A stretch of 64,000 bases of DNA. Origin: a virus. The notes beneath the pieces were generated by a model. That model did not search any database. It was given only the letters and a program-made list of their open reading frames with translations, and was not told the origin of the DNA. Positions 2,436 through 40,314 of this stretch are shown one piece after another. Location: positions 1 through 64,000 of IMG/VR virus record IMGVR_UViG_3300045600_000078, one strand, 5' to 3'. Each line of letters opens with the position of its first letter. The first letter of the stretch is position 1. A program made the translations under genes and the position numbers.

Positions 2436-2555
2436 ATGTCTGATCCTAATTTTAGCGAGGCCGATATTCTGAAGTCTGCCTGCGATCAGGGTAATACCGA
2501 TGGCGATGGGCCTTCGGATTCCGAGGTTAAGACCGGTGATACTGATGGCAAGTAG
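2436..2555 (+). CDS. Small acidic leader ORF (39 aa) overlapping the endolysin start; paralog of 41733..41840
   Basis: MSDPNFSEADILKSACDQGNTDGDGPSDSEVKTGDTDGK. The motif DGDGP(S/D)D.EVK is shared with the ORF upstream of the second CHAP lysin. The lysin ATG is embedded in its last codons. Confidence 0.45.
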   Translation: MSDPNFSEADILKSACDQGNTDGDGPSDSEVKTGDTDGK

Positions 2556-5614: not shown

Positions 5615-5617
5615 CTT

Positions 5618-5646
5618 TTCGCAAAAGTAGCATGTACTCTAATGAG
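5618..5646 (+). promoter_or_regulatory. Tripartite promoter-like motif, copy 1
   Basis: TTCGCA aaagtag CAT gtac TCTAAT GAG. Confidence 0.55.
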
Positions 5647-5651
5647 AAAGG

Positions 5652-5680
5652 GTGGAGTACATCCACTTTATTTTTTTTAT
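5652..5680 (+). terminator. Promoter-proximal hairpin + U-tract (attenuator or 5' stabiliser candidate)
   Basis: GTGGA gtaca TCCAC followed by TTTATTTTTTTT, beginning about 6 nt after the motif. Confidence 0.45.
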
Positions 5681-5710: not shown

Positions 5711-5905
5711 ATGCTAACATGTATTGCTATTCTGATTGCTTGCTGTTTTATAGGACTTTTCTTTTATATTTTTGTGGGGGCATTTCGAGTACTCTTTTGG
5801 GGGGCATTGTCCTTCTGCGGGCTTCTGGTGTTTTTTGTGCCTGCTATATTTTTTGCTTTGCTGCTTATTGGATTAATTTATCTTCTTTATAAGAATAAGG
5901 AGTAA
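5711..5905 (+). CDS. Small polytopic membrane protein (64 aa)
   Basis: RBS AAGGAG; almost entirely hydrophobic sequence. Confidence 0.55.
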   Translation: MLTCIAILIACCFIGLFFYIFVGAFRVLFWGALSFCGLLVFFVPAIFFALLLIGLIYLLYKNKE

Positions 5906-5910
5906 TCTGT

Positions 5911-6219
5911 ATGCAATCAGATAAAAAACAGCCATCATCTATACTGGTACCTATTATAGGGATAATAGCAATACTTATATTTTTAGTTCTCTCTAGATTT
6001 CCTGGGAGGGAGTATGTGTCGATAGACATACTCACTTCAAATGATGCCTCACAATTAGCCGAAACTGATGGTTCAGACTATTACTCTTGGTATGATTGGG
6101 ACCGTTTTAGTGGGAAAGTATATTTGCTTACCAGAAGCCAATCTGGGTCGATATCAGTTGCCGATGCGTATGGTCCATTCGGCGGAGAACTCTTTGTTAA
6201 AGATCTGCCTAAGCAATAG
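5911..6219 (+). CDS. Membrane-anchored hypothetical protein (102 aa)
   Basis: RBS AAGGAG; N-terminal TM ILVPIIGIIAILIFLVL. Confidence 0.55.
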   Translation: MQSDKKQPSSILVPIIGIIAILIFLVLSRFPGREYVSIDILTSNDASQLAETDGSDYYSWYDWDRFSGKVYLLTRSQSGSISVADAYGPFGGELFVKDLPKQ

Positions 6220-6242
6220 GTTAATTAACTAGGAGGAATGCT

Positions 6243-6497
6243 ATGTTTTTTAGAAATTTTAGGCTTTTGCTTATTAAGGAATACAACGTTAAGATCGTTC
6301 CTCGTTCAGATTCAGTCCTTACCCCGGCACTAATTGAAACCGTGCTTAACAATAATGATATTTTCTATCAAATGTATCCTCGAGTTAGTACAAATGACTT
6401 GTACCGATGCACTATTTGGTGCAAGGAAAAGCAGTTTAATTCGTTTAAGCGAGAGCTTAGGGCTATTCATAAGAACATCACAATTAAGACAAATTAG
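6243..6497 (+). CDS. Hypothetical protein (84 aa)
   Basis: RBS AGGAGG 6 nt upstream. Confidence 0.5.
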   Translation: MFFRNFRLLLIKEYNVKIVPRSDSVLTPALIETVLNNNDIFYQMYPRVSTNDLYRCTIWCKEKQFNSFKRELRAIHKNITIKTN

Positions 6498-6573
6498 TCA
6501 TATTTGCTGCTCTGTGAGAGGCGTTTTAAGCCCTTAGAATTTTTTATATGGGTAAATAGACCTAGTATAAATG

Positions 6574-6602
6574 AACGCAATTATGACATGGCCTATAACG
6601 GA
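6574..6602 (+). promoter_or_regulatory. Tripartite promoter-like motif, copy 2
   Basis: AACGCA attatga CAT ggcc TATAAC GGA. Confidence 0.45.
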
Positions 6603-6628
6603 GGTAAAATCCAACGAAAGGAGTATTT

Positions 6629-6910
6629 ATGCTGTTCAGTAACGATAATTCTGAGAAGAATGAGGCACTAGAAAGGCAGTACAAGCTTTTGGCGGATGCT
6701 GAGCCCGGTTCTGAGGAGGCTTTGAGGATTGCCAACACCATTGAAACTTTGGAGAAGTCTGATACATATAGACTTCGACTTAGTCCAGATGCAGTGTTTG
6801 GTGGTCTGATGAGTCTCGGAGGAATCGTTCTCATCGTTCTCGCTGAGGGCAAGGATGTGTTTCTGAGTGGGACTAAAGCTTGGAATAATGTTCCGAGGCC
6901 TAAGATCTAA
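6629..6910 (+). CDS. Small C-terminally anchored membrane protein (93 aa)
   Basis: Motif promoter + RBS AAAGGAG; TM FGGLMSLGGIVLIVLA. Confidence 0.55.
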   Translation: MLFSNDNSEKNEALERQYKLLADAEPGSEEALRIANTIETLEKSDTYRLRLSPDAVFGGLMSLGGIVLIVLAEGKDVFLSGTKAWNNVPRPKI

Positions 6911-6930
6911 TTAGCGGATTTATCTTTAAA

Positions 6931-6967
6931 GTTAAGAGTCTAACACGGACTCTTAACTTTTATATTT
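6931..6967 (+). terminator. Terminator hairpin, conserved-loop class
   Basis: GTTAAGAGTC [TAACACG] GACTCTTAAC followed by TTTTATATTT. Confidence 0.65.
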
Positions 6968-6992
6968 ATTAACGTTAAAAGGAGTTATGCCA

Positions 6993-7331
6993 ATGGACCC
7001 TGTTTATGTTAAATTTAACGGTAGTGACTCTTTTAAAGGCGTTTCTAACAAAGAATTTGAAGCGCGTAGAACTGCAAAGACTATAGTGTATACCACTTTG
7101 GTGTTTCTTAACTCTGATAAGAGTACAAGAACCGTAATACTATTTTCTGACAAAGATATTTTGGATTTTAATGACACGGAGTGTCTCTCACCGATTGATC
7201 AATTGGCGGCTTCTTATTTTTTGTATGTTACGAGCCTTACTGGAGCAGTATATTACAAATTTGGAAGCTATTATTGTGATAGCTATAGTCCAGAGATCTT
7301 GCTATTAGCAGGCCCATTTTCGCATAAATAG
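6993..7331 (+). CDS. Hypothetical protein (112 aa)
   Basis: Second ATG chosen because GGAG lies 8 nt upstream. The 3' end contains promoter-motif copy 3. Confidence 0.5.
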   Translation: MDPVYVKFNGSDSFKGVSNKEFEARRTAKTIVYTTLVFLNSDKSTRTVILFSDKDILDFNDTECLSPIDQLAASYFLYVTSLTGAVYYKFGSYYCDSYSPEILLLAGPFSHK

Positions 7332-7347
7332 CATGGGTTATAATGAA
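7319..7347 (+). promoter_or_regulatory. Tripartite promoter-like motif, copy 3
   Basis: TTCGCA taaatag CAT gggt TATAAT GAA; overlaps the stop codon of the upstream gene. Confidence 0.55.
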
Positions 7348-7373
7348 GGTAAAAACCTATGAAAGGAGTAGAT

Positions 7374-7505
7374 ATGATTATTATCTGTGCATTGGCTCTT
7401 CTCGGGCTTTTGGTAGTAATCGGCGGTGTCCAAATTTTGGCGGTCACTTGGCCGATTCTGCTGATAGCTGTAGGGATCAATGGGCTTATTAAGAAATTTA
7501 ATTGA
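7374..7505 (+). CDS. Small two-TM membrane protein (43 aa, not in ORF track)
   Basis: Own translation MIIICALALLGLLVVIGGVQILAVTWPILLIAVGINGLIKKFN. RBS AAAGGAG. Flanked by a motif promoter and a conserved-loop hairpin. Confidence 0.5.
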   Translation: MIIICALALLGLLVVIGGVQILAVTWPILLIAVGINGLIKKFN

Positions 7506-7528
7506 TATTTCTTATGGGCAAAGCCTTT

Positions 7529-7560
7529 AAAGGAGGGGTCCTAACAAGGATTCTTCCTTT
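7529..7560 (+). terminator. Terminator hairpin, conserved-loop class
   Basis: AAAGGAGGGGTC [CTAACAAG] GATTCTTCCTTT. Three G.U pairs mean it folds only as + strand RNA. Confidence 0.55.
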
Positions 7561-7589
7561 TTCGCAGGTATGGCATTCTCTATAATGAG
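7561..7589 (+). promoter_or_regulatory. Tripartite promoter-like motif, copy 4
   Basis: TTCGCA ggtatgg CAT tctc TATAAT GAG. Confidence 0.6.
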
Positions 7590-7618
7590 ATCTATACCAA
7601 TTTTTGAAAGGAGTTACT

Positions 7619-7807
7619 ATGGATAGATTCGGAGAAAAGGTTATATTTGTCATTGGACATGCTGCTCTGTTCGAGGTTGGGGCTGCTTGCGAAATAGTGT
7701 CTGCTATAGGAGACTATGCCGCACGGACGCTTCCGAAGGTTCAGAAAGCATATCATGACGCATTTGACCCAGATCCAGAGTCAGAAGAGTCTTCTTCAGA
7801 AGAGTAG
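7619..7807 (+). CDS. Small protein with hydrophobic N-half and acidic tail (62 aa)
   Basis: RBS AAAGGAG 5 nt upstream of ATG 7619. Confidence 0.55.
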   Translation: MDRFGEKVIFVIGHAALFEVGAACEIVSAIGDYAARTLPKVQKAYHDAFDPDPESEESSSEE

Positions 7808-7817
7808 ATTCTCAAAG

Positions 7818-7849
7818 GCTATGAATTCTCACAAGGATTCATAGCTTTT
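7818..7849 (+). terminator. Terminator hairpin, conserved-loop class
   Basis: GCTATGAAT [TCTCACAAGG] ATTCATAGC followed by TTTT. Confidence 0.6.
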
Positions 7850-7876
7850 CGCAGGCATAACATCTTCTATAATGAG
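7848..7876 (+). promoter_or_regulatory. Tripartite promoter-like motif, copy 5
   Basis: TTCGCA ggcataa CAT cttc TATAAT GAG. Confidence 0.6.
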
Positions 7877-7905
7877 GGTTAAAACTACGACGAAAGGAAG
7901 ATATT

Positions 7906-8184
7906 ATGTTTGAGTCTGCTAAGAACTGCGGATCCATGTTCGTTGCCGGTCTTAAGAATGACGATGCTGATCTGCATGAGCAGAAGTCAACTCCTCAGAA
8001 CAACGCCGCTTGGATCGTTGGCAAATCCGTTCGTGTGATCGGTATTGGCACGGTCGGGCTGGCTTGTCTGATGGGTTGCGTCTGGGAGCACAGGTGGCTC
8101 AACGGCAAGACTAAGTTTTACGACAGCGATTTGGACAAGTGGTTCGACTACAAGTCTTATGGCGAGTATCTTAGCAAGGAGTAG
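7906..8184 (+). CDS. Small single-pass membrane protein (92 aa)
   Basis: RBS AAAGGAAG; TM VIGIGTVGLACLMGCVW. Confidence 0.55.
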   Translation: MFESAKNCGSMFVAGLKNDDADLHEQKSTPQNNAAWIVGKSVRVIGIGTVGLACLMGCVWEHRWLNGKTKFYDSDLDKWFDYKSYGEYLSKE

Positions 8185-8195
8185 CCCCCTAAAAA

Positions 8196-8233
8196 GGTAA
8201 GAAGTCTAACAAGGCTTCTTGCCTTTTATATTT
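8196..8233 (+). terminator. Terminator hairpin, conserved-loop class
   Basis: GGTAAGAAG [TCTAACAAGG] CTTCTTGCC followed by TTTTATATTT. Confidence 0.65.
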
Positions 8234-8262
8234 ATTACAAAATTAGCACCCCCTATAATGGA
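8234..8262 (+). promoter_or_regulatory. Tripartite promoter-like motif, copy 6 (degenerate upstream half)
   Basis: ATTACA aaattag CAC cccc TATAAT GGA. Confidence 0.35.
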
Positions 8263-8287
8263 AGTAACTATTAAGAAAGGAGTTATT

Positions 8288-8455
8288 GTGAACAAGATCG
8301 AGTATTATACTATCCGTGTTTTGGCCGCTATTTTTGGGGGTAGCATTTACGGATATTTTCGAGGAATCTCAGAAGTTCTGACGATCTATCCACAAAAGAA
8401 CGGTAATGCTCAGATAATTAAAACAGATGATGCGTCAATAGATTCTAATAAATAG
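8288..8455 (+). CDS. Small membrane protein (55 aa, GTG start)
   Basis: AAAGGAG 5 nt upstream of the GTG; TM IRVLAAIFGGSIYGYF. Confidence 0.45.
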   Translation: MNKIEYYTIRVLAAIFGGSIYGYFRGISEVLTIYPQKNGNAQIIKTDDASIDSNK

Positions 8456-8465
8456 TTACTTTAAA

Positions 8466-8497
8466 ACTAAGAAGTTAACATTCCTTCTTAGTTTTTG
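8466..8497 (+). terminator. Terminator hairpin (loop TTAACATTC)
   Basis: ACTAAGAAG [TTAACATTC] CTTCTTAGT followed by TTTT. Confidence 0.6.
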
Positions 8498-8526
8498 CAT
8501 CCTTGCAACAAGTCTATTTATATTTA

Positions 8527-8555
8527 TTCGCGTCGTTTGCATTCCATCATATGAG
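8527..8555 (+). promoter_or_regulatory. Tripartite promoter-like motif, copy 7 (drives the non-coding cassette)
   Basis: TTCGCG tcgtttg CAT tcca TCATAT GAG. Confidence 0.45.
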
Positions 8556-8765
8556 AGGAAGAGGTGGGTGAAAAGGCTGTTTACAGCTGAATGTAACCAA
8601 CATAAACTAGTAATAGTAATCGTCTAATGGTAGGACACCGGGTAACCGGAGACGCAGTAGCTTAGTCTGAAAAACGAAAAGCGCCTAGTTTTGTGTGGAG
8701 ATGACTTCGGTTTGAACTGTGCTTAATTAGGAGAAGTTCGAAGCCTGCATCCTCTCTTATTTTTT
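8556..8765 (+). ncRNA. Candidate ~200-nt structured non-coding RNA containing a tRNA-Glu-derived D-arm block
   Basis: No ORF between the motif promoter and the U-tract. 5' GAGAGGA pairs with 3' TCCTCTC just before TTATTTTTT. Contains a CCGG-GTAA-CCGG (GNRA) hairpin and a C-TTCG-G hairpin. ATCGTCTAATGGTAGGAC nearly matches the D-arm of the tRNA-Glu at 21315. Confidence 0.45.
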
Positions 8766-8792
8766 CGCATGAACAGCATACTCTATAATGAA
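8764..8792 (+). promoter_or_regulatory. Tripartite promoter-like motif, copy 8
   Basis: TTCGCA tgaacag CAT actc TATAAT GAA. Confidence 0.6.
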
Positions 8793-8820
8793 GGGTTAAC
8801 CACTATGGAGGGGGTTTGCT

Positions 8821-9090
8821 ATGAGCAATTCATCTAACTATGGTTCACGTTTTATTGATGGTCTTACTGATAAGGATTCCAGGACTAAGGATTTCCATAT
8901 TGATGAGTCATTCGGAGAAAGCGCAGCATATACTGCTGGTAGCTGTATTGCAGCTACGACGATTGCTGCGGTTTTTATGATTGGACTTGGAATTATGAGA
9001 TCCTATACTAGGAATAAGTCAAAGAAGGACAACAATGAACAAGTAACTGAGAAGAATGATAGTTCTAAAGAATCTAATTCTGAAAACTAA
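8821..9090 (+). CDS. Small single-pass membrane protein (89 aa)
   Basis: RBS GGAGGGGG; TM CIAATTIAAVFMIGLGIM. Confidence 0.55.
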   Translation: MSNSSNYGSRFIDGLTDKDSRTKDFHIDESFGESAAYTAGSCIAATTIAAVFMIGLGIMRSYTRNKSKKDNNEQVTEKNDSSKESNSEN

Positions 9091-9100
9091 TCCTTCAAAG

Positions 9101-9131
9101 TCTAGAGGTCTAACAAGGCTTCTAGATTTTT
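9101..9131 (+). terminator. Terminator hairpin, conserved-loop class
   Basis: TCTAGAGGTC [TAACAA] GGCTTCTAGA followed by TTTTT (two G.U pairs). Confidence 0.65.
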
Positions 9132-9158
9132 CGCATATTTGGCATCCCCTATAACGAA
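9130..9158 (+). promoter_or_regulatory. Tripartite promoter-like motif, copy 9
   Basis: TTCGCA tatttgg CAT cccc TATAAC GAA. Confidence 0.55.
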
Positions 9159-9181
9159 GAGGGGAATGAAAGGAGATTCTC

Positions 9182-9421
9182 ATGTCTGAATCTTTTGATG
9201 AAGCAAAGCAGAAGGTTAAGGACTTTTATCTTAATCATAAGAACGCTGTCAAGTTTGGTCTTATCGGAACTGGTCTGGCTGCATTTGGTTCGGCAATGTT
9301 TGTTGCCGGAAAACATAATCAGACAGATATGTTCGGTGACCTCGATGATGTCGTTGCTTTTGGTGATGGAGAGCCGACCACTATGGGGCATCTGAAGGAG
9401 CTTTATACTAACGAGAAGTAA
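9182..9421 (+). CDS. Small single-pass membrane protein (79 aa)
   Basis: RBS AAAGGAG; TM FGLIGTGLAAFGSAMFVAG. Confidence 0.55.
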   Translation: MSESFDEAKQKVKDFYLNHKNAVKFGLIGTGLAAFGSAMFVAGKHNQTDMFGDLDDVVAFGDGEPTTMGHLKELYTNEK

Positions 9422-9462
9422 CTATTAAACTCCCCCTCTTCTTTTTCAAACCATATTTCTCA

Positions 9463-9491
9463 ATCGCGCACTTTACATGCTCTATAATGAG
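9463..9491 (+). promoter_or_regulatory. Tripartite promoter-like motif, copy 10
   Basis: ATCGCG cacttta CAT gctc TATAAT GAG. Confidence 0.55.
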
Positions 9492-9518
9492 AAGTAAACC
9501 ACGACAAAGGAGAAAATT

Positions 9519-9620
9519 ATGGTTGTTGCACTGTTTGCGTTTATTGTCTCTACTGCTGTTGCACTGTTTGTTTGCTACACCGACGTTCACGTCGAGGGCT
9601 ATAACAGTGTGGAGTATTAA
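9519..9620 (+). CDS. Micro membrane protein (33 aa, not in ORF track)
   Basis: Own translation MVVALFAFIVSTAVALFVCYTDVHVEGYNSVEY. RBS AAAGGAG 7 nt upstream. The antisense ORF 9408..9635 in the track is rejected. Confidence 0.45.
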   Translation: MVVALFAFIVSTAVALFVCYTDVHVEGYNSVEY

Positions 9621-9676
9621 GAGGCGATAACGCAAGAAGTATCCAACTGATATTTTAGATGGCTACTTCTACGAAA

Positions 9677-9715
9677 GAAGTCAGGAGTTCTAACAAGGAC
9701 TCTTGGCTTCTTTTT
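9677..9715 (+). terminator. Terminator hairpin, conserved-loop class
   Basis: GAAGTCAGGAGT [TCTAACAAGG] ACTCTTGGCTTC followed by TTTTT. Confidence 0.65.
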
Positions 9716-9716
9716 A

Positions 9717-9745
9717 TTCGCAGTTTCTACATGTACTATAATGAC
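9717..9745 (+). promoter_or_regulatory. Tripartite promoter-like motif, copy 11
   Basis: TTCGCA gtttcta CAT gtac TATAAT GAC. Confidence 0.6.
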
Positions 9746-9771
9746 AGGGAAACTACGACAAAGGAGTTGCT

Positions 9772-9933
9772 ATGTTTGAGACGTCGATTGAGGATATTGC
9801 CGCAGCTATGAACGAGTCCAATGAGGATGAACTATTTGCCAACGAAAACGTTGACAATTCTGATTCTCCTAGGATTATGTCATTCAGCTTCGGTAATTCT
9901 GATTTCTATTCTCAGAGGTACTACGAGTGCTAG
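9772..9933 (+). CDS. Small acidic protein (53 aa, not in ORF track)
   Basis: Own translation MFETSIEDIAAAMNESNEDELFANENVDNSDSPRIMSFSFGNSDFYSQRYYEC; RBS AAAGGAG. Confidence 0.45.
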   Translation: MFETSIEDIAAAMNESNEDELFANENVDNSDSPRIMSFSFGNSDFYSQRYYEC

Positions 9934-9948
9934 TGACCAAGGTCAAAA

Positions 9949-9985
9949 GGTAAGAAGTCTACAAGGCTTCTCACCTTTTATATTT
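9949..9985 (+). terminator. Terminator hairpin, conserved-loop class
   Basis: GGTAAGAAG [TCTACAAGG] CTTCTCACC followed by TTTTATATTT. Confidence 0.6.
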
Positions 9986-10012
9986 CGCACACATAGCATC
10001 GTCTATAATGAG
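9984..10012 (+). promoter_or_regulatory. Tripartite promoter-like motif, copy 12
   Basis: TTCGCA cacatag CAT cgtc TATAAT GAG. Confidence 0.6.
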
Positions 10013-10040
10013 GGTAAAATGTCGAATAGAAAGGAGTACT

Positions 10041-10235
10041 ATGTCACTTTGGATTACATTTTGTATCACAACGATTGCTTGTCTTTATTTAGCCAATAAG
10101 ATCTTTGCTTCGCCAACACCGAAACAAAAACCAATGGAGAAAGAAGAGGCCAGTTATGAAATTCCGATCACAGTAACTGATCCAATAACAGGCATAGAAA
10201 CAAAAACATTTGGGCATGTTATTCCTCACAAATAA
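10041..10235 (+). CDS. Small N-terminally anchored or secreted protein (64 aa)
   Basis: RBS AAAGGAG 6 nt upstream of the internal ATG; TM LWITFCITTIACLYLA. Confidence 0.5.
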   Translation: MSLWITFCITTIACLYLANKIFASPTPKQKPMEKEEASYEIPITVTDPITGIETKTFGHVIPHK

Positions 10236-10240
10236 AAAGA

Positions 10241-10280
10241 GGTCAGAGATCTAAACAAGGTCTCTGGCCTTTTATATTTT
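10241..10280 (+). terminator. Terminator hairpin, conserved-loop class
   Basis: GGTCAGAGA [TCTAAACAAGG] TCTCTGGCC followed by TTTTATATTTT. Confidence 0.65.
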
Positions 10281-10307
10281 CGCAGAAGCGACATCCTCTC
10301 TATCGAG
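10279..10307 (+). promoter_or_regulatory. Tripartite promoter-like motif, copy 13 (weak -10-like box)
   Basis: TTCGCA gaagcga CAT cctc TCTATC GAG. Confidence 0.4.
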
Positions 10308-10353
10308 AGTATTAAGTTTGGCAGATACAGAACTGTCATATTTAGAGAGTCAC

Positions 10354-10388
10354 TAACAATGATTCTAAGTTTTTTTTATTTCGTATAA
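10354..10388 (+). terminator. Leader hairpin + T8 run between promoter copy 13 and gene 10398
   Basis: AGAGTC [ACTAACAAT] GATTCT followed by AAGTTTTTTTT. Confidence 0.4.
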
Positions 10389-10397: not shown

Positions 10398-10637
10398 ATG
10401 AATACCAATGATACTAATATTGAAGAACTTAATATTTCAGAAATAGATCAGTCTGGAAAGAAGGTTATTTCAGAAAGTCTAGATAAGCTTGACGAAGCTT
10501 TTAAGACTCTTCAAATCGACGTCAATGTACTCAAGAATGAGTATCCGGGGAACGAGAAGCTTTCGAATGATCTTGACACTACTAAGATGTGGTATAAGTT
10601 TATAAAATTAGTTATACTTGAAAAAGTGCTCAATTAG
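10398..10637 (+). CDS. Hypothetical protein (79 aa)
   Basis: RBS AAGGAG 6 nt upstream. Confidence 0.5.
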   Translation: MNTNDTNIEELNISEIDQSGKKVISESLDKLDEAFKTLQIDVNVLKNEYPGNEKLSNDLDTTKMWYKFIKLVILEKVLN

Positions 10638-10869: not shown

Positions 10870-11439
10870 ATGAGCAAGACATTTGGTGAACGAATTCGTG
10901 AAATTACCTCGGAAGAAAAATATCCGAAACAAATTGATATTTCAGACGATTTGCTAAATCTGGATGTTGATGACTTTTCTGATGGGTATCATACATTCAA
11001 TCAATTGTATGATACAAGAGCAAAGCTATTTGCTGTTATCTGTAATACTTATAAGGATCTTGCTTGGAAGTCAAAGAAGCATTATTCCGACAAGGACCCT
11101 ATGTATGATGGTATGTTTATAGTCGGAATTGAAACACCGCTTGGCCCGGCAGCATACCACTTTGATATTGACCCTTATTGGGATATTTTTAGAGTTCAAG
11201 AGCTTGATCGAGGATTATATTATGACGGGCATACTCCTCGCACAGGCATTGACCGTATTCTTTCTATATCTGGAGTATTAGTTCCCCCAATTGAATCTGA
11301 TACTATAGACATTGTTTTTAATAAAAATTCAGCACGTCAGATTCGATATTATGAAACGTTAGATTATATTAAACCTAAAAAGAAGGAAACTGAAAACAAT
11401 GAACACGAAGCCGAGTCTTTGGACGAAGGAACAGAGTGA
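10870..11439 (+). CDS. Hypothetical protein (189 aa)
   Basis: RBS ACGGAG; long ORF with no recognised motif. Confidence 0.6.
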   Translation: MSKTFGERIREITSEEKYPKQIDISDDLLNLDVDDFSDGYHTFNQLYDTRAKLFAVICNTYKDLAWKSKKHYSDKDPMYDGMFIVGIETPLGPAAYHFDIDPYWDIFRVQELDRGLYYDGHTPRTGIDRILSISGVLVPPIESDTIDIVFNKNSARQIRYYETLDYIKPKKKETENNEHEAESLDEGTE

Positions 11440-11650
11440 TAACAATCTGGCCATGCGGTTTACAATAAATCGGTCACTCTCAAAAGCATATCGTTCTACG
11501 TTTGTTACTTTTATCAAGAGTATTCCTGGCTACGTCTATAGTGAACTGGATTTCTATCTTTCTGTGACTGACTGGTTTGAGAATGGCTGGTCATATTTGT
11601 GCACGTATCAACAGTGGCTTGATAGAAATTTCCAGAGTATCGTCGCGTAG
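11399..11650 (+). CDS. Hypothetical protein; start uncertain (alternative ATG 11453)
   Basis: ORF overlaps the upstream gene by 41 nt; no clear RBS. Confidence 0.3.
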   Translation: MNTKPSLWTKEQSDNNLAMRFTINRSLSKAYRSTFVTFIKSIPGYVYSELDFYLSVTDWFENGWSYLCTYQQWLDRNFQSIVA

Positions 11651-11670
11651 TTTACATACCTTATAGTGAG
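11642..11670 (+). promoter_or_regulatory. Tripartite promoter-like motif, copy 14
   Basis: GTCGCG tagttta CAT acct TATAGT GAG. Confidence 0.5.
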
Positions 11671-11698
11671 AGGGAAACCACTATTAAGGAGTATTATC

Positions 11699-11968
11699 AT
11701 GTTTGTTTATTCTATGTTTGGTCATATTTTTGCTTATGGTGTCAAGATTTTCGGGTATAACGGGTATATGACGCTTTATACTCCGCTCATGCTGATTGTT
11801 GTTGCAGTTGCTGGTATCATCTTTGGATTGATGATTGCCTATGCTATCTGTGACATCAAGAAGGGTATTGCGGAAGATGAGGCTCAAGAACTCGAGCACG
11901 AAAAGATGAACAAGCAAATTAAGGATCTTATCACTGAGAACAATAATCTTAAGAATCTTATCAGGTAA
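11699..11968 (+). CDS. Membrane protein with C-terminal coiled coil (89 aa)
   Basis: RBS AAGGAG; TM LMLIVVAVAGIIFGLMIAYAI. Confidence 0.5.
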   Translation: MFVYSMFGHIFAYGVKIFGYNGYMTLYTPLMLIVVAVAGIIFGLMIAYAICDIKKGIAEDEAQELEHEKMNKQIKDLITENNNLKNLIR

Positions 11969-13395: not shown

Positions 13396-13415
13396 TTTAT
13401 CTGGCTCCATATTTT

Positions 13416-13444
13416 TTCGCAAAAATAGCATACGTTCTAATGAG
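13416..13444 (+). promoter_or_regulatory. Tripartite promoter-like motif, copy 15
   Basis: TTCGCA aaaatag CAT acgt TCTAAT GAG. Confidence 0.55.
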
Positions 13445-13466
13445 ACGGTTAAGAGAGGAGTTAGCT

Positions 13467-13649: not shown

Positions 13650-13734
13650 TAAAACCATATTCTAGACGGATTGATGTTTTAGTTATCATATAACTATTCA
13701 ACAAACCGTCTCTATTTTTGTGAATGTTCTTAGT

Positions 13735-16094: not shown

Positions 16095-16097
16095 TTA

Positions 16098-16126
16098 TCC
16101 GCACGAATAGCATCCCCCCTAATGGA
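16098..16126 (+). promoter_or_regulatory. Tripartite promoter-like motif, copy 16 (weaker)
   Basis: TCCGCA cgaatag CAT cccc CCTAAT GGA. Confidence 0.4.
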
Positions 16127-16217
16127 AAGGTAAATGTTTAACAACACAATGTTAAGATCGGAAATGATTCCGAGTTTACTTACCATCAAAATTTTTATAT
16201 TTTAGAAAGGAGGAGCC

Positions 16218-20696: not shown

Positions 20697-20773
20697 GCCT
20701 CGGTAACTCAATTGGTTAGAGTAGTGGACTTTTAATCCAAAGGTTGTGGGTTCGAATCCCACCCGGAGCACCA
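20697..20773 (+). tRNA. tRNA-Lys(UUU) copy 1, CCA encoded, C3.A70 acceptor mismatch
   Basis: GCCTCGG/CCGGAGC acceptor, anticodon loop CTTTTAA, T-arm GTGGG-TTCGAAT-CCCAC. Confidence 0.85.
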
Positions 20774-23679: not shown

Positions 23680-23735
23680 ATATTAATTCAGAAAATGCTA
23701 CAGTACCTCTTAATATTACTAATTCTGCCCAGTAA

Positions 23736-23764
23736 TTCGCGTAATTTACATACCCTATAATGAG
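23736..23764 (+). promoter_or_regulatory. Tripartite promoter-like motif, copy 17
   Basis: TTCGCG taattta CAT accc TATAAT GAG. Confidence 0.6.
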
Positions 23765-23793
23765 GTAAGTCACTTCAATGAAAGGAGATTGTC

Positions 23794-25157: not shown

Positions 25158-25469
25158 ATGGAAACAACAAAGGCTTCTACTACCCATAAGAGTACTATTA
25201 ATGAGCTTATCTATAAAACCCGTACATGGTATTCAGCTAATAAAGACTTTATAAAGAGGCACGCTAAGATCGGTGCACTTGTTGGCTTTGCCGTCTCAGT
25301 TGGATATTCTCTTGGCAAAAAGACGCATACCGGAGCTATTACAAAGGTAGTTGAGTCACCTGTTACCAATGGGGCATACGCTGTGTTCTTTACGAAAGAG
25401 GGCGTGCCGACAGTAGCTGCAGAGCTTAGCTCGGTGCAGTCTGTAGACTCCCCAGATATTTTTATGTAA
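25158..25469 (+). CDS. Hypothetical membrane-associated protein (103 aa)
   Basis: AAGAGGAA upstream of ATG 25158; TM IGALVGFAVSVGYSLG. Confidence 0.5.
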   Translation: METTKASTTHKSTINELIYKTRTWYSANKDFIKRHAKIGALVGFAVSVGYSLGKKTHTGAITKVVESPVTNGAYAVFFTKEGVPTVAAELSSVQSVDSPDIFM

Positions 25470-25496
25470 CGCGAAAAGAACATGCCCCATAACGAG
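25468..25496 (+). promoter_or_regulatory. Tripartite promoter-like motif, copy 18, followed by a 5' hairpin + U-tract
   Basis: AACGCG aaaagaa CAT gccc CATAAC GAG, then GAGAGGCGCA atagg TGCGTTCTCTC TTATATTTTT. Confidence 0.45.
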
Positions 25497-25550
25497 AGGC
25501 GCAATAGGTGCGTTCTCTCTTATATTTTTCTCTCATGAAAGGAGAGAAGT

Positions 25551-26366: not shown

Positions 26367-26391
26367 TGAACGTCACCGATAGAGTCTATGG

Positions 26392-26420
26392 TTCGCACAA
26401 CGAGCATGCCATTTAATGAG
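26392..26420 (+). promoter_or_regulatory. Tripartite promoter-like motif, copy 19, followed by a 5' hairpin + U-tract
   Basis: TTCGCA caacgag CAT gcca TTTAAT GAG, then GAGAGAT aatagg ATCTCTC TTTT. Confidence 0.55.
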
Positions 26421-26455
26421 AGATAATAGGATCTCTCTTTTGAAAGGAGATATTT

Positions 26456-36681: not shown

Positions 36682-36693
36682 GCCATATTTTGG

Positions 36694-36722
36694 TTCGCGT
36701 AGAATACATGGTGCCTAATGAA
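36694..36722 (+). promoter_or_regulatory. Tripartite promoter-like motif, copy 20 (upstream of the nuclease/RNAP-candidate operon)
   Basis: TTCGCG tagaata CAT ggtg CCTAAT GAA, followed by an imperfect hairpin and TATTTTT. Confidence 0.5.
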
Positions 36723-36771
36723 TAGAAGGGTAGAGTACACTCTTTCTTATTTTTCCAAAGGAGGCAACCCA

Positions 36772-37062: not shown

Positions 37063-37600
37063 TGGCAAGCACGCATTTTTAAGCGCTAGCCAGCATTCTT
37101 GGATTAACTATGATGAGGACAAGCTCATCAACACATATTCTAATTATTTGGCAAAGCAGAAGGGTACATTGCTTCATGACTTTGCGAGACGATGCATAAC
37201 ACTAAACCAGAATCTTCCTAAGTCGAATAAGACCTTAAATCTGTATGTCAATGATGCCATTGGCTATAAGATGACCCCCGAGCAAGTTTTGTACTATTCA
37301 CCAAACTGCTTTGGTACGGCTGACGCAATTTCATATTCTGAAAAGAACAAGTTTCTTAGAATCCATGACTTAAAGACTGGAATGACTCCAGCCTCTATGG
37401 ATCAGTTAGAGATATATTCTTCTCTCTTTTGTCTCGAGTATGGAATCAAGCCAGCCTCGATAGGAATCGAACTTAGGATCTACCAGTTTAATGAGGCCCA
37501 TATTTACGAGCCGCCACTTGACAATATTGTCCACATCATGGATAAGATTGTTGCGTTTGATCAGATACTAGAAGAACTAGAGTCAGAATCGGAGGTGTAA
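37034..37600 (+). CDS. PD-(D/E)XK nuclease (RecB/Cas4-like exonuclease fold)
   Basis: FLSASQ..., GTADAI...RIHDLKTG (D...D-x-K), ELRIYQ. GTG start 6 nt after GGAGGAGG. Confidence 0.5.
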   Translation: MNFNQHLELDGKHAFLSASQHSWINYDEDKLINTYSNYLAKQKGTLLHDFARRCITLNQNLPKSNKTLNLYVNDAIGYKMTPEQVLYYSPNCFGTADAISYSEKNKFLRIHDLKTGMTPASMDQLEIYSSLFCLEYGIKPASIGIELRIYQFNEAHIYEPPLDNIVHIMDKIVAFDQILEELESESEV

Positions 37601-37605
37601 TGTTC

Positions 37606-40314
37606 ATGAGCGACGAAGATCAAGAAGAGCGATATTTGATTCACTATGGTACGCCTAGGCACTCCGGGAGGTATCCTTGGGGCTCTGGTGAAAACCCATG
37701 CCAGCGTAATGGCAATTTCTTAAGTCGATATTCAGATCTTCATGAACAGGGCATCGCCGATAAGGACATAGCAAAAGCAATGGGTATGTCCCTTAACGAT
37801 CTTAGATCTCAGCGCCAGCTGGCAAAGGTTGAACAGAAGGCCTCCGATATTTCTACGGCTCGAAGGCTTAAGGATTCGGGAATGAGCATAACGGCTATTA
37901 GCCGTCAGATGGAAAAAAACGAATCGTCTATCAGATCCCTGCTCAATCCATCTAATAAAATGCGTAATGATCGGCTCATTACTACTCGAGACATGCTCAA
38001 AGATCAGATAGAAAAGAAAAAGTATCTTGATGTCGGCAAGGGCGTTGAGTACGATGTCGGAGTCAGCAAGCAAATGCTTGATAACGCTGTCAATACTTTA
38101 ACCCATGAAGGTTATCAGGTAATTAATCTTCAGGTTACCCAGCGAGGAACCGGTCTTAAGACTACCCGAAAGGTTCTTTGCCCTGAAGGAACCACACTTC
38201 AAGATGTTCGTGATCATCAAGCAGACATTGGCCTGATTAATGAACGTTGGAGTGATGATACACAATCATATTCTTCATTGGGTCTTAAGCCAATAAAGAG
38301 TATCTCGTCTAAGCGTGTAGCTATTCGCTATGGCGACGAAGGTGGAACCGATAGAGACGGCGTTATAGAGTTGCGCCGAGGAGTTGCTGGGCTTGACCTT
38401 GGTGATTCGAGGTATGCCCAGGTTCGAATTGGAGTTGATGGCACACATTATCTTAAGGGAATGGCTATCTATAGTGATAACGTTCCTAAGGGATACGATA
38501 TTCTGTTTAACACCAACAAGGCTTCAGGAACTCCTAAAAAAGACGTTCTTAAGTCAATGGAAACTAACAAGGACGGCTCCATAAACAAAGACAATCCATT
38601 CAAGACGTCTCTTAAGCTTGACGAGAGTCTTCATCCTGTGCAAAAGGGATATTTGAACGTTGTTCGCGAAGAGGGAGACTGGGGAAAGTGGAAGAAGACC
38701 CTTGCTTCCCAGATGCTGGCAAAGCAGCCGCAAGAGCTGATTAACAAACAGCTCAATCTTACATATTCTTCGAAACGATCTGAGCTTGATGAGATTAAGG
38801 CACTTACCAATCCCGCAGTTAAGAAGAAGCTTCTTATGAGCTTTGCTGATGGGTGCGATTCAGACGCTGACCATCTCTCTGCAGCAGCTATGCCTAGACA
38901 GGCAACTAAGGTTCTTTTGCCCCTCACGGATATTGCATCAAACAAGATCTATGCTCCGGATTATAGAGATGGCGAGTCGGTGGTTCTCATTCGATATCCT
39001 CACGGAGGAAAGTTTGAGATTCCAGAGTTGACGGTTGACAATCATAGTTCCAAAGAAGCTAAGAGTATATTTAAGGGTGGCGGGCAGCTTAAGGACGCCG
39101 TGGGTATTAATACGGATGTAGCTGCTCGTCTTTCTGGTGCCGACTTTGATGGCGACACGGTTCTTGTTATACCTAACTCGCGTAAAGAGATTAAAAGTTC
39201 TTCTCCGCTAAAGGGGCTTAAGGACTTCAATCCTTCGGAGGCATATCCTGGCTACGAGGGAATGAAGGTTCTTAGTGATAAGCAAAAGGGTAATGAAATG
39301 GGTAAGGTGACCAACCTTATTACAGACATGACCCTTAAGGGGGCTAGTGACGAAGAGCTAACTCGTGCTGTTAAGCATTCAATGGTTGTCATTGATGCCC
39401 ACAAACATAAGCTTAACTACAAGCAGTCCGAAAAAGACAATGGAATTAAAGAGCTTAAGGAAAAGTACCAAGGGCATTACGACGAGGATGGCAAGTTTAA
39501 GACCGGAGCCTCTACGGTTATATCTAGGGCGAAAGCTGAAACGCGTGTTCCCAAGCGTAGGATGAATTACAAGATAAATCCTACTACTGGTGAAAAAGAA
39601 TGGATGTATACCGGGGATAAAAAGGCTATCGTTAAAGTTGACAAGAACACCGGAGAAAAGAAAGTAGTTAAATACGAGCCGGTTCTTATGGTGTCAACTC
39701 AGATGGCTGAAACAAAAGATGCTAATACTCTTTCTTCGGGAACGGATCCAGAAAAGGCATACGCCAAGCACGCTAATAAGCTCAAGGCTTTAGCAAACGA
39801 AGCCCGTCTTACGGCTGTAAACACGAAGCCTATGGCTTGGTCTAGTTCAGCTAAGAAAACATATTCTGCTGAAGTGGAATCGCTTGATGCCAAGCTGGCC
39901 AATGCTAAACGTAAGGCTCCACTTGAACGTAAGGCTCAGAGTATAGCTAACCAACAGGTATCGATTGCCCGACAGGATAATCCAGACATGGAAAAAGAAG
40001 ATCTTAAGAAAGTCGGTACCCAAGCGTTGACTGCAGCACGAGCAAATCTTGGTATGAAAAAAGTTGATGTCGATATTACTCCTAAGGAATGGGAAGCCAT
40101 TCAGGCTGGGGCAATAAGCGATCACAAGCTTAGCGAGATATTAACACGTGCTGATTTGGATGTGGTTAAGGCTTATGCTACACCTCGAAACAAGAAGACT
40201 TTGACTGCGGCAAAGAAGGCTCAGATAAAGGCTGCATATTCTAGAGGCTTTACTCAGAGAGAGATTGCTGACATGTTTGGAATATCTCCTTCGACAGTAA
40301 ATGAAATAGTTTAA
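37606..40314 (+). CDS. Candidate single-polypeptide two-barrel (YonO-like) RNA polymerase with HTH modules
   Basis: VVLIRYPHGG...AVGINTDVAARLSGADFDGDTVLVIP aligns with the beta-prime DPBB ([10 protein letters not shown]...[26 protein letters not shown]). THYLKGMAI resembles the beta RHGxKG motif. C-terminal FTQREIADMFGISPSTVNEIV is HTH-like. Start at ATG 37606, 8 nt after GGAGGTG. Confidence 0.55.
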   Translation: MSDEDQEERYLIHYGTPRHSGRYPWGSGENPCQRNGNFLSRYSDLHEQGIADKDIAKAMGMSLNDLRSQRQLAKVEQKASDISTARRLKDSGMSITAISRQMEKNESSIRSLLNPSNKMRNDRLITTRDMLKDQIEKKKYLDVGKGVEYDVGVSKQMLDNAVNTLTHEGYQVINLQVTQRGTGLKTTRKVLCPEGTTLQDVRDHQADIGLINERWSDDTQSYSSLGLKPIKSISSKRVAIRYGDEGGTDRDGVIELRRGVAGLDLGDSRYAQVRIGVDGTHYLKGMAIYSDNVPKGYDILFNTNKASGTPKKDVLKSMETNKDGSINKDNPFKTSLKLDESLHPVQKGYLNVVREEGDWGKWKKTLASQMLAKQPQELINKQLNLTYSSKRSELDEIKALTNPAVKKKLLMSFADGCDSDADHLSAAAMPRQATKVLLPLTDIASNKIYAPDYRDGESVVLIRYPHGGKFEIPELTVDNHSSKEAKSIFKGGGQLKDAVGINTDVAARLSGADFDGDTVLVIPNSRKEIKSSSPLKGLKDFNPSEAYPGYEGMKVLSDKQKGNEMGKVTNLITDMTLKGASDEELTRAVKHSMVVIDAHKHKLNYKQSEKDNGIKELKEKYQGHYDEDGKFKTGASTVISRAKAETRVPKRRMNYKINPTTGEKEWMYTGDKKAIVKVDKNTGEKKVVKYEPVLMVSTQMAETKDANTLSSGTDPEKAYAKHANKLKALANEARLTAVNTKPMAWSSSAKKTYSAEVESLDAKLANAKRKAPLERKAQSIANQQVSIARQDNPDMEKEDLKKVGTQALTAARANLGMKKVDVDITPKEWEAIQAGAISDHKLSEILTRADLDVVKAYATPRNKKTLTAAKKAQIKAAYSRGFTQREIADMFGISPSTVNEIV

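Follow-up and report, generated by a model that had tools for sequence, protein, structure and literature searches.

The stretch of DNA analyzed here (the window) comprises 64,000 nucleotides of a virus, positions 1 to 64,000 of IMG/VR record IMGVR_UViG_3300045600_000078. It is a phage sequence with a G+C content of 41.9%, in which all genes lie on the + strand. Between about 6.57 and 10.39 kb it carries an array of small genes set between copies of a promoter-like motif and hairpins followed by T-runs, and further downstream it encodes a 904-aa protein that resembles single-chain RNA polymerases. A first-pass annotation of the sequence had described the array as 12 consecutive units, and the weight matrix presented below recovers 12 motif copies at 6572-10310. 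The array, the motif copies outside it and the polymerase-like gene are listed here. Scores in bits are those of the position weight matrix (PWM), dN/dS is the ratio of nonsynonymous to synonymous substitution rates against the related contig L228, ORF stands for open reading frame and SD for Shine-Dalgarno sequence.

5616..5649, + strand: promoter copy (PWM 35 bits), followed by a 5' hairpin (5649-5669) with a T-run and then by the operon 5711-6497
6572..6605, + strand: promoter copy 1, a weak variant (AACGCA...TATAAC) that is kept in L228 (PWM 19.9/26.9 bits)
6629..6910, + strand: 93-aa ORF with one transmembrane helix, phrog_5818 (dN/dS 0.13)
6928..6960, + strand: terminator hairpin with apex TCTAACACGGA and T-run (-17 kcal/mol)
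6993..7331, + strand: 112-aa ORF with an SD, no promoter of its own and no transmembrane helix, absent from L228
7317..7350, + strand: promoter copy 2 (PWM 37.7 bits), overlapping the 3' end of the 112-aa ORF; homology to L228 resumes here
7374..7505, + strand: 43-aa ORF, strongly hydrophobic (dN/dS 0.23)
7532..7557, + strand: terminator hairpin with apex CCTAACAAGGA, its T-run being the start of the next promoter
7559..7592, + strand: promoter copy 3 (PWM 38.3 bits)
7619..7807, + strand: 62-aa ORF with a borderline hydrophobic segment and an acidic tail (dN/dS 0.15)
7818..7845, + strand: terminator hairpin with apex TCTCACAAGGA (-16 kcal/mol), the stem showing compensatory changes relative to L228
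7846..7879, + strand: promoter copy 4 (PWM 42.9 bits)
7906..8184, + strand: 92-aa ORF with one transmembrane helix (dN/dS 0.28)
8192..8227, + strand: terminator hairpin with apex TCTAACAAGGC (-21.5 kcal/mol)
8232..8265, + strand: promoter copy 5, a weak variant with TTACA instead of TCGCA (PWM 20.3/27.8 bits)
8288..8455, + strand: 55-aa ORF with a GTG start, weakly hydrophobic
8466..8492, + strand: weaker terminator hairpin with T-run
8525..8558, + strand: promoter copy 6, a weak variant with the hexamer TCATAT, ahead of an ORF-less unit (PWM 15.4/26.0 bits)
8553..8765, + strand: predicted non-coding RNA of about 213 nt, with pairing of its ends (GAGAGG with CCTCTC at 8751-8756)
8762..8795, + strand: promoter copy 7 (PWM 41.1 bits)
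8821..9090, + strand: 89-aa ORF with one transmembrane helix
9101..9126, + strand: terminator hairpin with apex TCTAACAAGGC, its T-run being the start of the next promoter
9128..9161, + strand: promoter copy 8, hexamer TATAAC (PWM 38.6 bits)
9182..9421, + strand: 79-aa ORF with a borderline transmembrane segment
9432..9446, + strand: 3' end CCCCCTCTTC with T-run, forming a 5'-3' closing stem with GAAGAGGGG (9156-9164) and no local hairpin
9461..9494, + strand: promoter copy 9 (PWM 33.5 bits)
9519..9620, + strand: 33-aa ORF, hydrophobic
9678..9709, + strand: terminator hairpin with apex TTCTAACAAGGA
9715..9748, + strand: promoter copy 10 (PWM 33.8 bits)
9772..9933, + strand: 53-aa ORF, very acidic (net charge -10), without transmembrane helix
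9947..9977, + strand: terminator hairpin with apex TCTACAAGGC
9982..10015, + strand: promoter copy 11 (PWM 41.8 bits)
10041..10235, + strand: 64-aa ORF with an N-terminal transmembrane helix
10237..10273, + strand: terminator hairpin with apex TCTAAACAAGGT
10277..10310, + strand: promoter copy 12, hexamer TCTATC, with a 93-nt structured leader that ends in T8 (PWM 31.7 bits)
10398..10637, + strand: 79-aa ORF without transmembrane helix, the first gene 3' of the array
11640..11673, + strand: isolated promoter copy, then an 89-aa transmembrane protein (11699-11968) and a terminator at 11980
13414..13447, + strand: isolated promoter copy, then a 60-aa ORF; tRNA-Met downstream at 13735
16096..16129, + strand: isolated promoter copy, then a 117-aa transmembrane protein; tRNA-Leu downstream at 16588
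23734..23767, + strand: isolated promoter copy, then an 84-aa transmembrane protein and a terminator at 24101
25466..25499, + strand: isolated promoter copy, then a 5' hairpin (GAGAGGCGCA...TGCGTTCTCTC) with T-run and the DUF6353 gene 25551-26366
26390..26423, + strand: isolated promoter copy, then a 5' hairpin and a 68-aa transmembrane protein
36692..36725, + strand: weaker promoter copy (PWM 22.1 bits), then a 5' hairpin with T-run, ahead of the operon that ends in the RNA polymerase gene
37600..40314, + strand: candidate 904-aa single-chain two-barrel RNA polymerase with N- and C-terminal helix-turn-helix (HTH) domains (from motif, fold and profiles)

The motif shared by these units spans 34 nt and reads TTTTCGCA-N7-RCAT-N3-CTATAATGAG, with CTATAAT as its 3' block. 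A weight matrix built from nine hand-read copies was run with a threshold of 12 bits over the 64-kb window and shuffled controls. It gave 19 matches, all on the + strand and located from 5616 to 26390, compared to 0-2 in the shuffles. One round of refinement raised the number to 20 by adding the copy at 36692, still with none on the - strand, and all 20 copies lie 5' of SD-led genes or RNA genes. Twelve of them form the array and the other eight are scattered, as far as 36.7 kb. The isolated units that the first-pass annotation had placed at 5.6, 11.6, 13.4, 23.7, 25.5 and 26.4 kb were all recovered, and two more that it had missed were found at 16096 and 36692. A regular-expression scan for two blocks 16-21 nt apart returned noise only.

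Within the array, successive copies are separated by 745, 242, 287, 386, 293, 237, 366, 333, 254, 267 and 295 bp. The spacing of 240-390 bp proposed earlier thus describes 10 of the 11 intervals but not the first one, which contains two ORFs. Likewise, the claim that every unit has the same five parts is true for most of them but has to be relaxed for the ORF at 6993-7331, which has no promoter, for the ORF-less unit at 8525-8765, for the unit at 9128, which lacks a local hairpin, and for the three weak promoter variants at 6572, 8232 and 8525. With these exceptions, the appearance of self-contained modules made of promoter, leader, SD, ORF and terminator is borne out in the sequence. In 10 of the 12 units, 26-32 nt separate the end of TATAAT from the start codon. 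The leader of about 28 nt follows the pattern GAG(G/A)G...AAC(C/T)ACGA(C)AAAGGAG, SD included, and ends with (G/C)AAAGGAG, in agreement with the conserved leader and AAAGGAG ribosome binding site described in the first pass.

We then considered what could recognize this motif. As a rule, host polymerases carrying sigma-70 or sigma-A use two hexamers 16-18 bp apart or a TGn extended -10 element, and the motif has neither arrangement. The TTCGCA block is 14 nt from TATAAT and the second block, (T)TACAY or RCAT, is 4 nt from it; neither is usable as a -35 element. There is no TGn extension, as no TG is found at -15/-14 and a C stands directly 5' of the hexamer. Canonical sigma-70 -35/-10 sites are not enriched in the array (20, against 19.1 +/- 4.6 in shuffles). 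In the information profile TATAAT is the best-conserved block, and conservation continues past the hexamer into GAGA(CC) and the leader; the contiguous conserved block extends from about -28 to +6. With sigma-70, transcription starts about 6-8 nt downstream of the -10 box.

These features bear on an alternative in which the motif is a host sigma-A promoter: TATAAT would be the -10 element, and the upstream blocks (TCGCA and TTACAY) would bind a phage activator that replaces -35 recognition in the manner of MotA/AsiA, the 904-aa HTH protein being a possible candidate for this activator. In favor of it, TATAAT is a perfect -10 consensus and also the best-conserved block. In T4, middle promoters combine a box near -30 with a -10 hexamer, a geometry close to that of the present motif. 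On the other hand, a -35 element at a workable spacing is absent, and conservation that runs through the hexamer into GAGA(CC) and the leader is rather that of contiguous phage-polymerase promoters. Moreover, the early promoters of Lactococcus phage sk1 are annotated as canonical -35/-10 pairs, unlike the motif of Lactococcus phage 1706 (see below). We consider this alternative unlikely.

Units without an ORF gave an indication of where transcription would start. The unit noted in the first pass at 8527-8765 was confirmed at 8525-8765. In the RNA of about 213 nt behind promoter 8525, the 5' GAGAGG pairs with the 3' CCTCTC that precedes the T-run. Its core at 8609-8656 (AATCGTCTAATGGTAGGACACCGGGTAACCGGAGACG) is shared by ORF-less promoter-driven RNAs of three other contigs (L137, 7241-7288, - strand; L207, 3027-3074, - strand; L195, 189-232, - strand), which show compensatory changes among themselves. 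Neither an Rfam match (at the gathering threshold or with E <= 5) nor an ARAGORN tRNA was found in the unit, and its overall folding energy is not unusual (z = -1.0). We predict from conservation and pairing that it is a small-RNA gene and not a decayed cassette. A second family of ORF-less RNAs (GAGAGGAAAGGCGAGACA...CCTCTC followed by a T-run), also without a meaningful Rfam match, is present in Gordonia phage Secretariat (L001, 31537-31646) and in the contigs L104 (2178-2287), L210 (898-1007) and L152 (3849-3952). Across the lineage, about 14% of the units lack an ORF and some of these are tRNAs; in Lactococcus phage 1706, one promoter copy stands ahead of a tRNA-like sequence.

In ORF-less units, the first bases after the hexamer, GAGAG, pair with the CTCTC located before the terminal T-run. 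When 559 promoters were scanned for such stems, closing either an ORF-less RNA or a 5' hairpin, the 5' arm began at the first post-hexamer base in 32 and at +1 to +4 in 52 more, compared to about 3 per offset with the control anchor. Only the anchor at +50 served as control, the one placed 60 nt upstream being contaminated by preceding terminators. In addition, a tRNA-like gene begins at the first base after TATAAT in three contigs (L198, 11113-11185, with TATAAT at 11107-11112; L125, 13312-13384; L142, 6639-6711). Its sequence is identical in the three contigs; the anticodon loop is abnormal (ARAGORN 'tRNA-???'), and a T-run forms the 3' end. If transcription started about 7 nt further on, as with sigma-70, these stems and the acceptor arm could not form. 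We therefore infer that the transcription start would be the G directly after TATAAT, and this in-silico proxy argues against a sigma-A promoter.

The protein that we propose as the reader of the motif is encoded at 37600-40314. Its DxDGD loop (GADFDGD, residues 513-519) has D515, F516, D517, G518 and D519 invariant in 27 homologues. It matches the profile phrog_4291 with 1158 bits and, at residues 867-903, sigma-70 region 4 / HTH_23. The AlphaFold model (mean pLDDT, the predicted local distance difference test, 75) retrieved with Foldseek QDE-1 (E 1.3e-7), RDR2 (7.4e-6) and P74-26 gp62 (1.9e-4), followed by beta' (largest) subunits of multisubunit polymerases; no match to any solved structure is detectable at the sequence level. 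At least 7,999 homologues are found below 1e-10 in the protein database. The data point to a QDE-1/YonO-like two-barrel RNA polymerase, its enzymatic activity being predicted from the model and the loop, and the invariant DFDGD together with the two-barrel fold argues for an active polymerase and not for a mere transcription factor as in the sigma-A alternative. We ruled out that the tape measure carries a further polymerase of the virion type, as it does in phage P23-45, since the window contains a single DxDGD ORF. Concerning related enzymes, the promoter of the distant homologue YonO was explicitly left undetermined in 2017 (PMC5467207), while P23-45 has two two-barrel polymerases, each with its own promoter motif, and one terminator class with a conserved 26-nt motif (PMC10770324).

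The motif follows this polymerase from phage to phage. It is found in register in eight polymerase-encoding genomes whose hosts belong to eight genera and two phyla, and four control phages lack it. Starting from the window copies, iterative refinement gave 7-12 copies each in Gordonia Secretariat, Lactococcus 1706, Arthrobacter Circum, Streptomyces Rima and Bifidobacterium BitterVaud1 (shuffles, 0-2), and the strong matches in these five phages are all on the coding strand, in the mid-genome region of small genes. A family matrix that was kept fixed, without refinement on these genomes, found eight copies in Curtobacterium Eevee and seven in Microbacterium Damascus, and none in Mycobacterium L5, Lactococcus sk1, Streptomyces phiC31 and 50 kb of SPbeta. 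Inspection by eye of intergenic regions in Secretariat and 1706 showed the motif with the same leader, TTCGCA..ATTACAYGCCYTATAATGAGACCCCTACGAAAGGA and TTTCGCATGTTTTACATAYACTATAGTAGAAAGAAGG. The family consensus (n = 66) is tnTTCGCAnnnaTTACAtgccCTATAATGAgA, and the genomes that carry the motif range from 33% to 60% G+C.

The same association was seen in metagenomic contigs. At least 118 IMG/VR contigs contain an exact match to the window-type pattern. Among the 118 listed, 83 have at least three copies on the same strand and none has two or more copies on both strands. Hallmark genes of the lineage were found in 59 of the 118, within the short stretch available for each, against 4 of 95 control loci, and the one most often beside the arrays is DUF6353 / phrog_2152 (39 of the 118). 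The 502 units of these contigs have a median spacing of 437 bp, and in 86% an SD-led ORF lies directly 3' of the motif; the first ORFs have a median length of 71.5 aa, a strongly hydrophobic 19-mer is present in about half of them, and the leaders measure about 28 nt. Some arrays are denser than that of the window, with 19 copies in 14 kb (L151), 17 in 7.8 kb (L176), 14 in 6.1 kb (L128) and 10 in 3.0 kb (L167). Two other genes used as anchors, those for the endolysin and for a 189-aa PF25311 protein, are common to unrelated phages, and the motif was found at none of those loci.

Taking together the geometry of the motif, its conservation across phyla, the proxy for the start site, the features of the polymerase and the precedent of P23-45, the most economical explanation is to regard the motif as the cognate promoter of the phage two-barrel polymerase, which would start transcription at the G after TATAAT, and not as a site read by host sigma-A. 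The first-pass annotation had noted neither the non-host character of the proposed promoter nor the polymerase gene. We give this reading a probability of roughly 65%. Extended to the lineage, it is fairly probable that the motif, possibly along with a hairpin of conserved apex described below, represents the cognate promoter (and terminator) of a large clade of HTH-fused two-barrel polymerases in phages of Actinobacteria and Firmicutes.

Several points weigh against this proposal. TATAAT is a perfect sigma-A -10 hexamer, recognized in all these hosts, so that its conservation alone is no evidence for a phage enzyme. No motif copy is found ahead of the structural genes in the window; at least one further promoter class must therefore exist. 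SPbeta, source of YonO, the only characterized homologue from a bacterial virus, lacks the motif; in its yonN-yonK gap, the presumed YonO promoter region, the best family-motif score is 2.3 bits. The closing-stem scan used a GC criterion that excludes stems whose first base lies at least 2 nt within the AT-only hexamer, and its result would also fit a start directed by the upstream TAnCAT element. As to the protein, the Foldseek TM-scores (template-modelling scores) are low, 0.2-0.3, so that the fold match rests on the core, and Pfam RdRP gives no match at E < 0.001. The polymerase gene is also the last gene of the rightward genome, behind the same-class promoter 36692, and the homologue in Lactococcus 1706 is not annotated as a virion protein. 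The first polymerase molecules would then have to be a low-copy injected protein or come from an unrecognized host promoter. Here the sigma-A alternative has an advantage, since with an enzyme not annotated as structural in 1706 the host polymerase must act first, and it is also in line with the published interpretation of a DJ-cluster motif as a sigma-70 -10 element. More generally, promoter function, start site and the identity of the reading polymerase have been deduced by sequence analysis.

Sequences at the 3' ends of the units are as regular as the promoters. Hairpins followed by a T-run are enriched in the array (14 sites, against 3.9 +/- 2.1 in shuffles), which supports the hairpin and U-tract terminators of the first-pass annotation. 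Our in-house search for terminators accepted too many candidates (77 on the + strand), and we used only its long-stem sites and a separate hairpin scan. The typical stem has 11-16 bp, and the T-run doubles as the TTTT of the next promoter; it merges into TTTTCGCA at 5616, 7559, 7846, 8762 and 9128 and is at most 10 nt away at most other promoters. The apex of the hairpin, CTAACAAGG, follows a pattern, YCTAACA(A/C)GG, that is conserved in the window, Circum, Secretariat and Rima, thus in phages of four host genera. In the window it is carried by the terminators at 6928, 7532, 8192, 9101, 9678, 10237 and 13352, with near-variants at 9947 and 11980, and in relatives it occurs at 25713, 26374 and 28511 of L003, 32285 and 33374 of L001, and 26286 of L004. 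Between the window and L228, the bases exchanged in the stems compensate each other (CTATGAATTC/GGATTCATAG versus CTAAGAGTTC/GGACTCTTAG), and the apex TTCTNACAAGGA is unchanged. Because the apex is conserved while the stems change, a sequence-specific component is hinted at, and the conserved apex suggests a specific role in termination or processing.

Two mRNAs seem to be closed differently. In the unit at 9128 there is no local hairpin, and the 5' end GAAGAGGGG (9156-9164) pairs with CCCCTCTTC (9432-9441) directly before the T-run. A second case was observed behind promoter 13414, where GAGACGG (13442-13448) is complementary to CCGTCTC (about 13706-13712) before the terminal T-run. Both ends of these transcripts would be held in a single stem. 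Hairpins with a T-run are also found just behind five promoters (5616, 10277, 25466, 26390 and 36692), before the SD, at the following positions:

5644-5676, + strand: promoter-proximal hairpin
10305-10380, + strand: promoter-proximal hairpin
25494-25520, + strand: promoter-proximal hairpin
26418-26440, + strand: promoter-proximal hairpin
36720-36755, + strand: promoter-proximal hairpin

The genes behind them are larger than the array ORFs or are heads of operons, and the hairpins may be attenuators or 5' stabilizing stem-loops.

One could propose from these elements that the region is transcribed as one or several long RNAs, in which the blocks of hairpin, motif and leader serve as punctuation for processing, stability or enhanced translation. 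The single-strand gene layout permits read-through, the leader is conserved through to the SD across genera, the apex conservation is unnecessary for plain intrinsic terminators, and several promoters directly precede a hairpin with T-run that would be self-terminating if fully efficient. However, a T-run follows nearly every hairpin, tRNA and small-RNA genes stand directly behind the motif, and the upstream half of the motif, which is outside any transcript-level pairing, is equally conserved. The 5' ends of the ORF-less RNAs pair from the exact post-hexamer base, which argues for a defined 5' end, although a processing cut could also yield one. An RNA-level element is thus very improbable. 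Termination efficiency, like expression timing and the roles of the peptides, was inferred from the sequence.

We next turned to the small proteins. The first-pass annotation attributed a single hydrophobic helix to most of them; a hydrophobic 19-mer is clear in 6 of the 12 ORFs and borderline in 3, while 3 have none, one of these being strongly acidic. Eight further contigs from several samples carry essentially the window sequence, with one mismatch in one contig, and the 92-aa protein has 100% identical copies on 11 contigs from several samples. Such near-identical contigs give no information on selection, and we therefore used L228, a 4.3-kb contig which carries P0242, 81% identical to the 93-aa product of 6629-6910. 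It contains an orthologous run of 93, 43, 62 and 92 aa with 69-81% DNA identity to the window. The four dN/dS values listed above (0.13, 0.23, 0.15 and 0.28) give a pooled value of 0.21, with synonymous sites near saturation. The low ratios for these four pairs indicate that the array peptides are translated and constrained, as the first pass had assumed. Promoter core and leader are conserved between the two sequences, whereas the N positions of the motif differ.

The same comparison informed us about gain and loss of genes. Homology to L228 is lost after the 93-aa gene, at its stop codon (6911), and is regained precisely at promoter 7317, so that the 112-aa ORF, absent from L228, is an insertion or deletion between a terminator and a promoter; the genes 5' of the 93-aa gene differ as well. 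Gain or loss at unit boundaries, which the first pass had suggested looking for by comparative genomics, is thus seen, on the basis of this single comparison.

The first-pass annotation went further and suggested that the array had expanded by tandem duplication of one promoter-peptide-terminator cassette, giving a dosage-controlled family of host-takeover or exclusion peptides. The regulatory parts are indeed alike between units, and about half of the products have one hydrophobic helix. Nevertheless, no significant similarity was detected among the 21 small proteins of the window (best E 0.017 over 19 residues), and a tblastn search with them against five related genomes gave no match. Pfam returned nothing for the array proteins and PHROG only phrog_5818 for the 93-aa product. 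Three products are soluble, one of them strongly acidic, and the sole difference seen in the one relative compared is that unrelated ORFs were inserted, deleted or replaced where units meet. What recurs is restricted to the regulatory parts; since these are also conserved from phages of one phylum to those of the other, their resemblance inside a single genome reflects function and not recent copying. We consequently rejected cassette duplication as the origin of the array and regard a dosage-controlled family of related peptides as hardly tenable. The array is better described as a uniform regulatory frame with unrelated genes exchanged at its joints than as a duplicated family. The holin is encoded elsewhere, hence the peptides are not the main lysis system. 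They would be expressed independently, with strong SDs, and often have a single transmembrane helix; they are under purifying selection within lineages but turn over completely from one lineage to another. This design suggests rapidly evolving accessory factors that would act at the host envelope.

According to the mechanism that we favor, each unit would consist, in order, of a lineage-specific promoter of about 34 nt, the start G, a leader of about 28 nt with the SD, one small ORF and a hairpin with a T-run that merges into the next promoter, about half of the ORFs encoding single-pass membrane proteins. The phage polymerase, one HTH of which resembles sigma region 4, would read these promoters. 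The terminator-promoter punctuation would make each gene independent of its neighbors and would provide homologous sites where unrelated small genes, tRNAs and small RNAs swap in and out, and such swapping would account for unrelated ORFs in a uniform frame.

The remainder of the window places the array in its genomic context.

25-1836, + strand: DUF285/LRR protein gene
2500-4071, + strand: holin, then endolysin with CHAP and GH25 domains
after holin/endolysin and before tRNAs and replication genes, + strand: the small-gene array
13.7-21.4 kb: five tRNAs (Met, Leu, Lys x2, Glu; ARAGORN)
25551-26366 (behind a promoter copy) and 27729-28682, + strand: two DUF6353 / phrog_2152 paralogues
30697-34716, + strand: primase-DNA polymerase, then helicase (the coordinates are those of the primase-polymerase)
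40315-41730: AT-rich, almost gene-free stretch of 1.4 kb directly after the polymerase gene
3' of the AT-rich stretch, + strand: terminase, portal, protease-capsid fusion and tape measure

The DUF285/LRR gene has near-identical DNA repeats, with copies at 63, 219, 531, 609 and 765, and a ricin-type lectin domain at its end; its product may be a repeat-variable receptor-binding protein. The two tRNA-Lys(UUU) genes are in tandem (20697-20773 and 20799-20875, with a gap of 25 nt). The stretch at 40315-41730 contains ATATAATATAAAA repeats, a long (A7-9T)n run and a G8/C7 palindrome at 41425-41462. The best sigma-A-like sites of the window are within it, and it is probably a genome end, an origin or an early control region.

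Gene content and order assign the phage to a known group. The signature proteins of the supercluster formed by Lactococcus phage 1706 and the actinophage clusters AM, AU, AW, BI, CC, DJ and EL are present: phrog_4291 (1158 bits), phrog_4210 (1858 bits), and a single 714-aa ORF that matches both Peptidase_S78 and Phage_capsid. In 250 deposited phages, full-length homologues with 46-52% identity were found for the 904-aa protein and for the primase-polymerase, a protein of about 1300 aa in this supercluster. The hosts of these phages are Arthrobacter, Gordonia, Streptomyces, Curtobacterium, Rhodococcus, Microbacterium, Bifidobacterium, Lactococcus and Faecalibacterium. No deposited phage matches the window at the DNA level, and even the most conserved proteins are only about 50% identical. 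The order of LRR protein, holin, endolysin, array, tRNAs, primase-polymerase and RNA polymerase is matched by the layout of L001-L005, L232 and L233. The array is therefore the mid-genome small-gene array typical of this supercluster.

The supercluster was described in bioRxiv 10.1101/842583, where the HTH/RdRP-like protein of about 900 aa is a signature gene already proposed as a polymerase and among the few genes common to all its members. The presence of small membrane-protein gene arrays 3' of the tail genes has been recorded as a hallmark and an unusual trait of the group (PMC5513430, PMC5679793, PMC13313380), with about 20 small transmembrane proteins in each AU genome (PMC5679793). The genome announcements of the Gordonia phages Vardy and Conley report five copies, identified with MEME, of a 43-50 bp intergenic motif containing 'a -10 sigma70 promoter sequence', accompanied by terminators and transmembrane genes. 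The first-pass description of the layout as unusual can thus not be maintained, all the more as T4-type phages have analogous cassettes. The array layout itself is already known, and the published interpretation of the motif makes no connection to the polymerase-like gene. We found in the literature no earlier report of the motif sequence or of a promoter for this polymerase clade; the papers on Rhodococcus phages Pepy6/Poco6 and on Lactococcus phage 1706 could mention one.

One more array would change little. The value of the present analysis is a testable link between a lineage-wide promoter and an uncharacterized clade of single-chain polymerases, with candidate promoter, start site and terminator readable from the sequence and conserved from Lactococcus to Streptomyces phages. 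If true, this would be the first promoter definition for the clade and would answer, within it, how YonO-like polymerases find their promoters. It would also provide a compact, host-independent (orthogonal) set of polymerase, promoter and terminator for Gram-positive hosts, conserved across two phyla, with which the lineage would express an exchangeable set of small membrane proteins, tRNAs and small RNAs. Finally, it would offer a rationale for keeping independently expressed, fast-evolving small membrane proteins, with possible roles in exclusion, envelope remodelling or anti-defence.

Compared to the other arrays of the supercluster, that of the window shares the HTH/RdRP-like 900-aa protein, the primase-polymerase and the protease-capsid fusion, the position after tail and lysis genes and before replication genes, and the many small single-transmembrane ORFs separated by gaps. 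It also shares the motif in register, the terminator apex and a repeated TATAAT-containing motif as in Vardy and Conley. It differs by its small proteins, which have no tblastn match in five relatives. Regarding two-barrel polymerases (SPbeta YonO, crAss-like phi14:2 gp66, P23-45 gp64 and gp96), the 904-aa protein has in common with them the DFDGD loop and a fold related to QDE-1 and P74-26 gp62, whereas its clade is distinguished by N- and C-terminal HTH domains and by a promoter motif that is absent from SPbeta. T7-type promoters are contiguous, span about 23 bp and start right after ...TATA. The window motif resembles them in its contiguous block and in the inferred start at a G after TATA(A/G)T, a likeness of format only: no T7-like polymerase turned up among the approximately 30 window proteins scanned, and the window enzyme is a member of the two-barrel superfamily, which is unrelated.

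In Bacillus phage SPO1, the host-takeover module consists of many short operons in which small genes are placed between strong early promoters and terminators; its promoters are of the canonical host sigma-A type, and it lies in the terminal redundancy. The array shares with it dense, short, individually promoted and terminated units, and differs in its non-canonical promoter geometry and its mid-genome site. The closest parallel in organization is with the promoter-early stem-loop (PeSL) cassettes, the early promoters of which are, in T4, read by host sigma-70. In T4-type phages, these cassettes are composite terminator/promoter elements that flank small, variable and mostly orphan genes in plastic regions, and they are the sites of indels and replacements (PMC4122927, PMC2839356). 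The window has the same composite terminator-promoter elements and, in the one comparison with L228, insertions, deletions or replacements that end there. It differs by a geometry that is not that of sigma-70 and that tracks a phage-encoded polymerase, and by its lineage, that of unrelated siphoviruses of Gram-positive hosts. The array is thus an analogue of the PeSL system and not a member of it.

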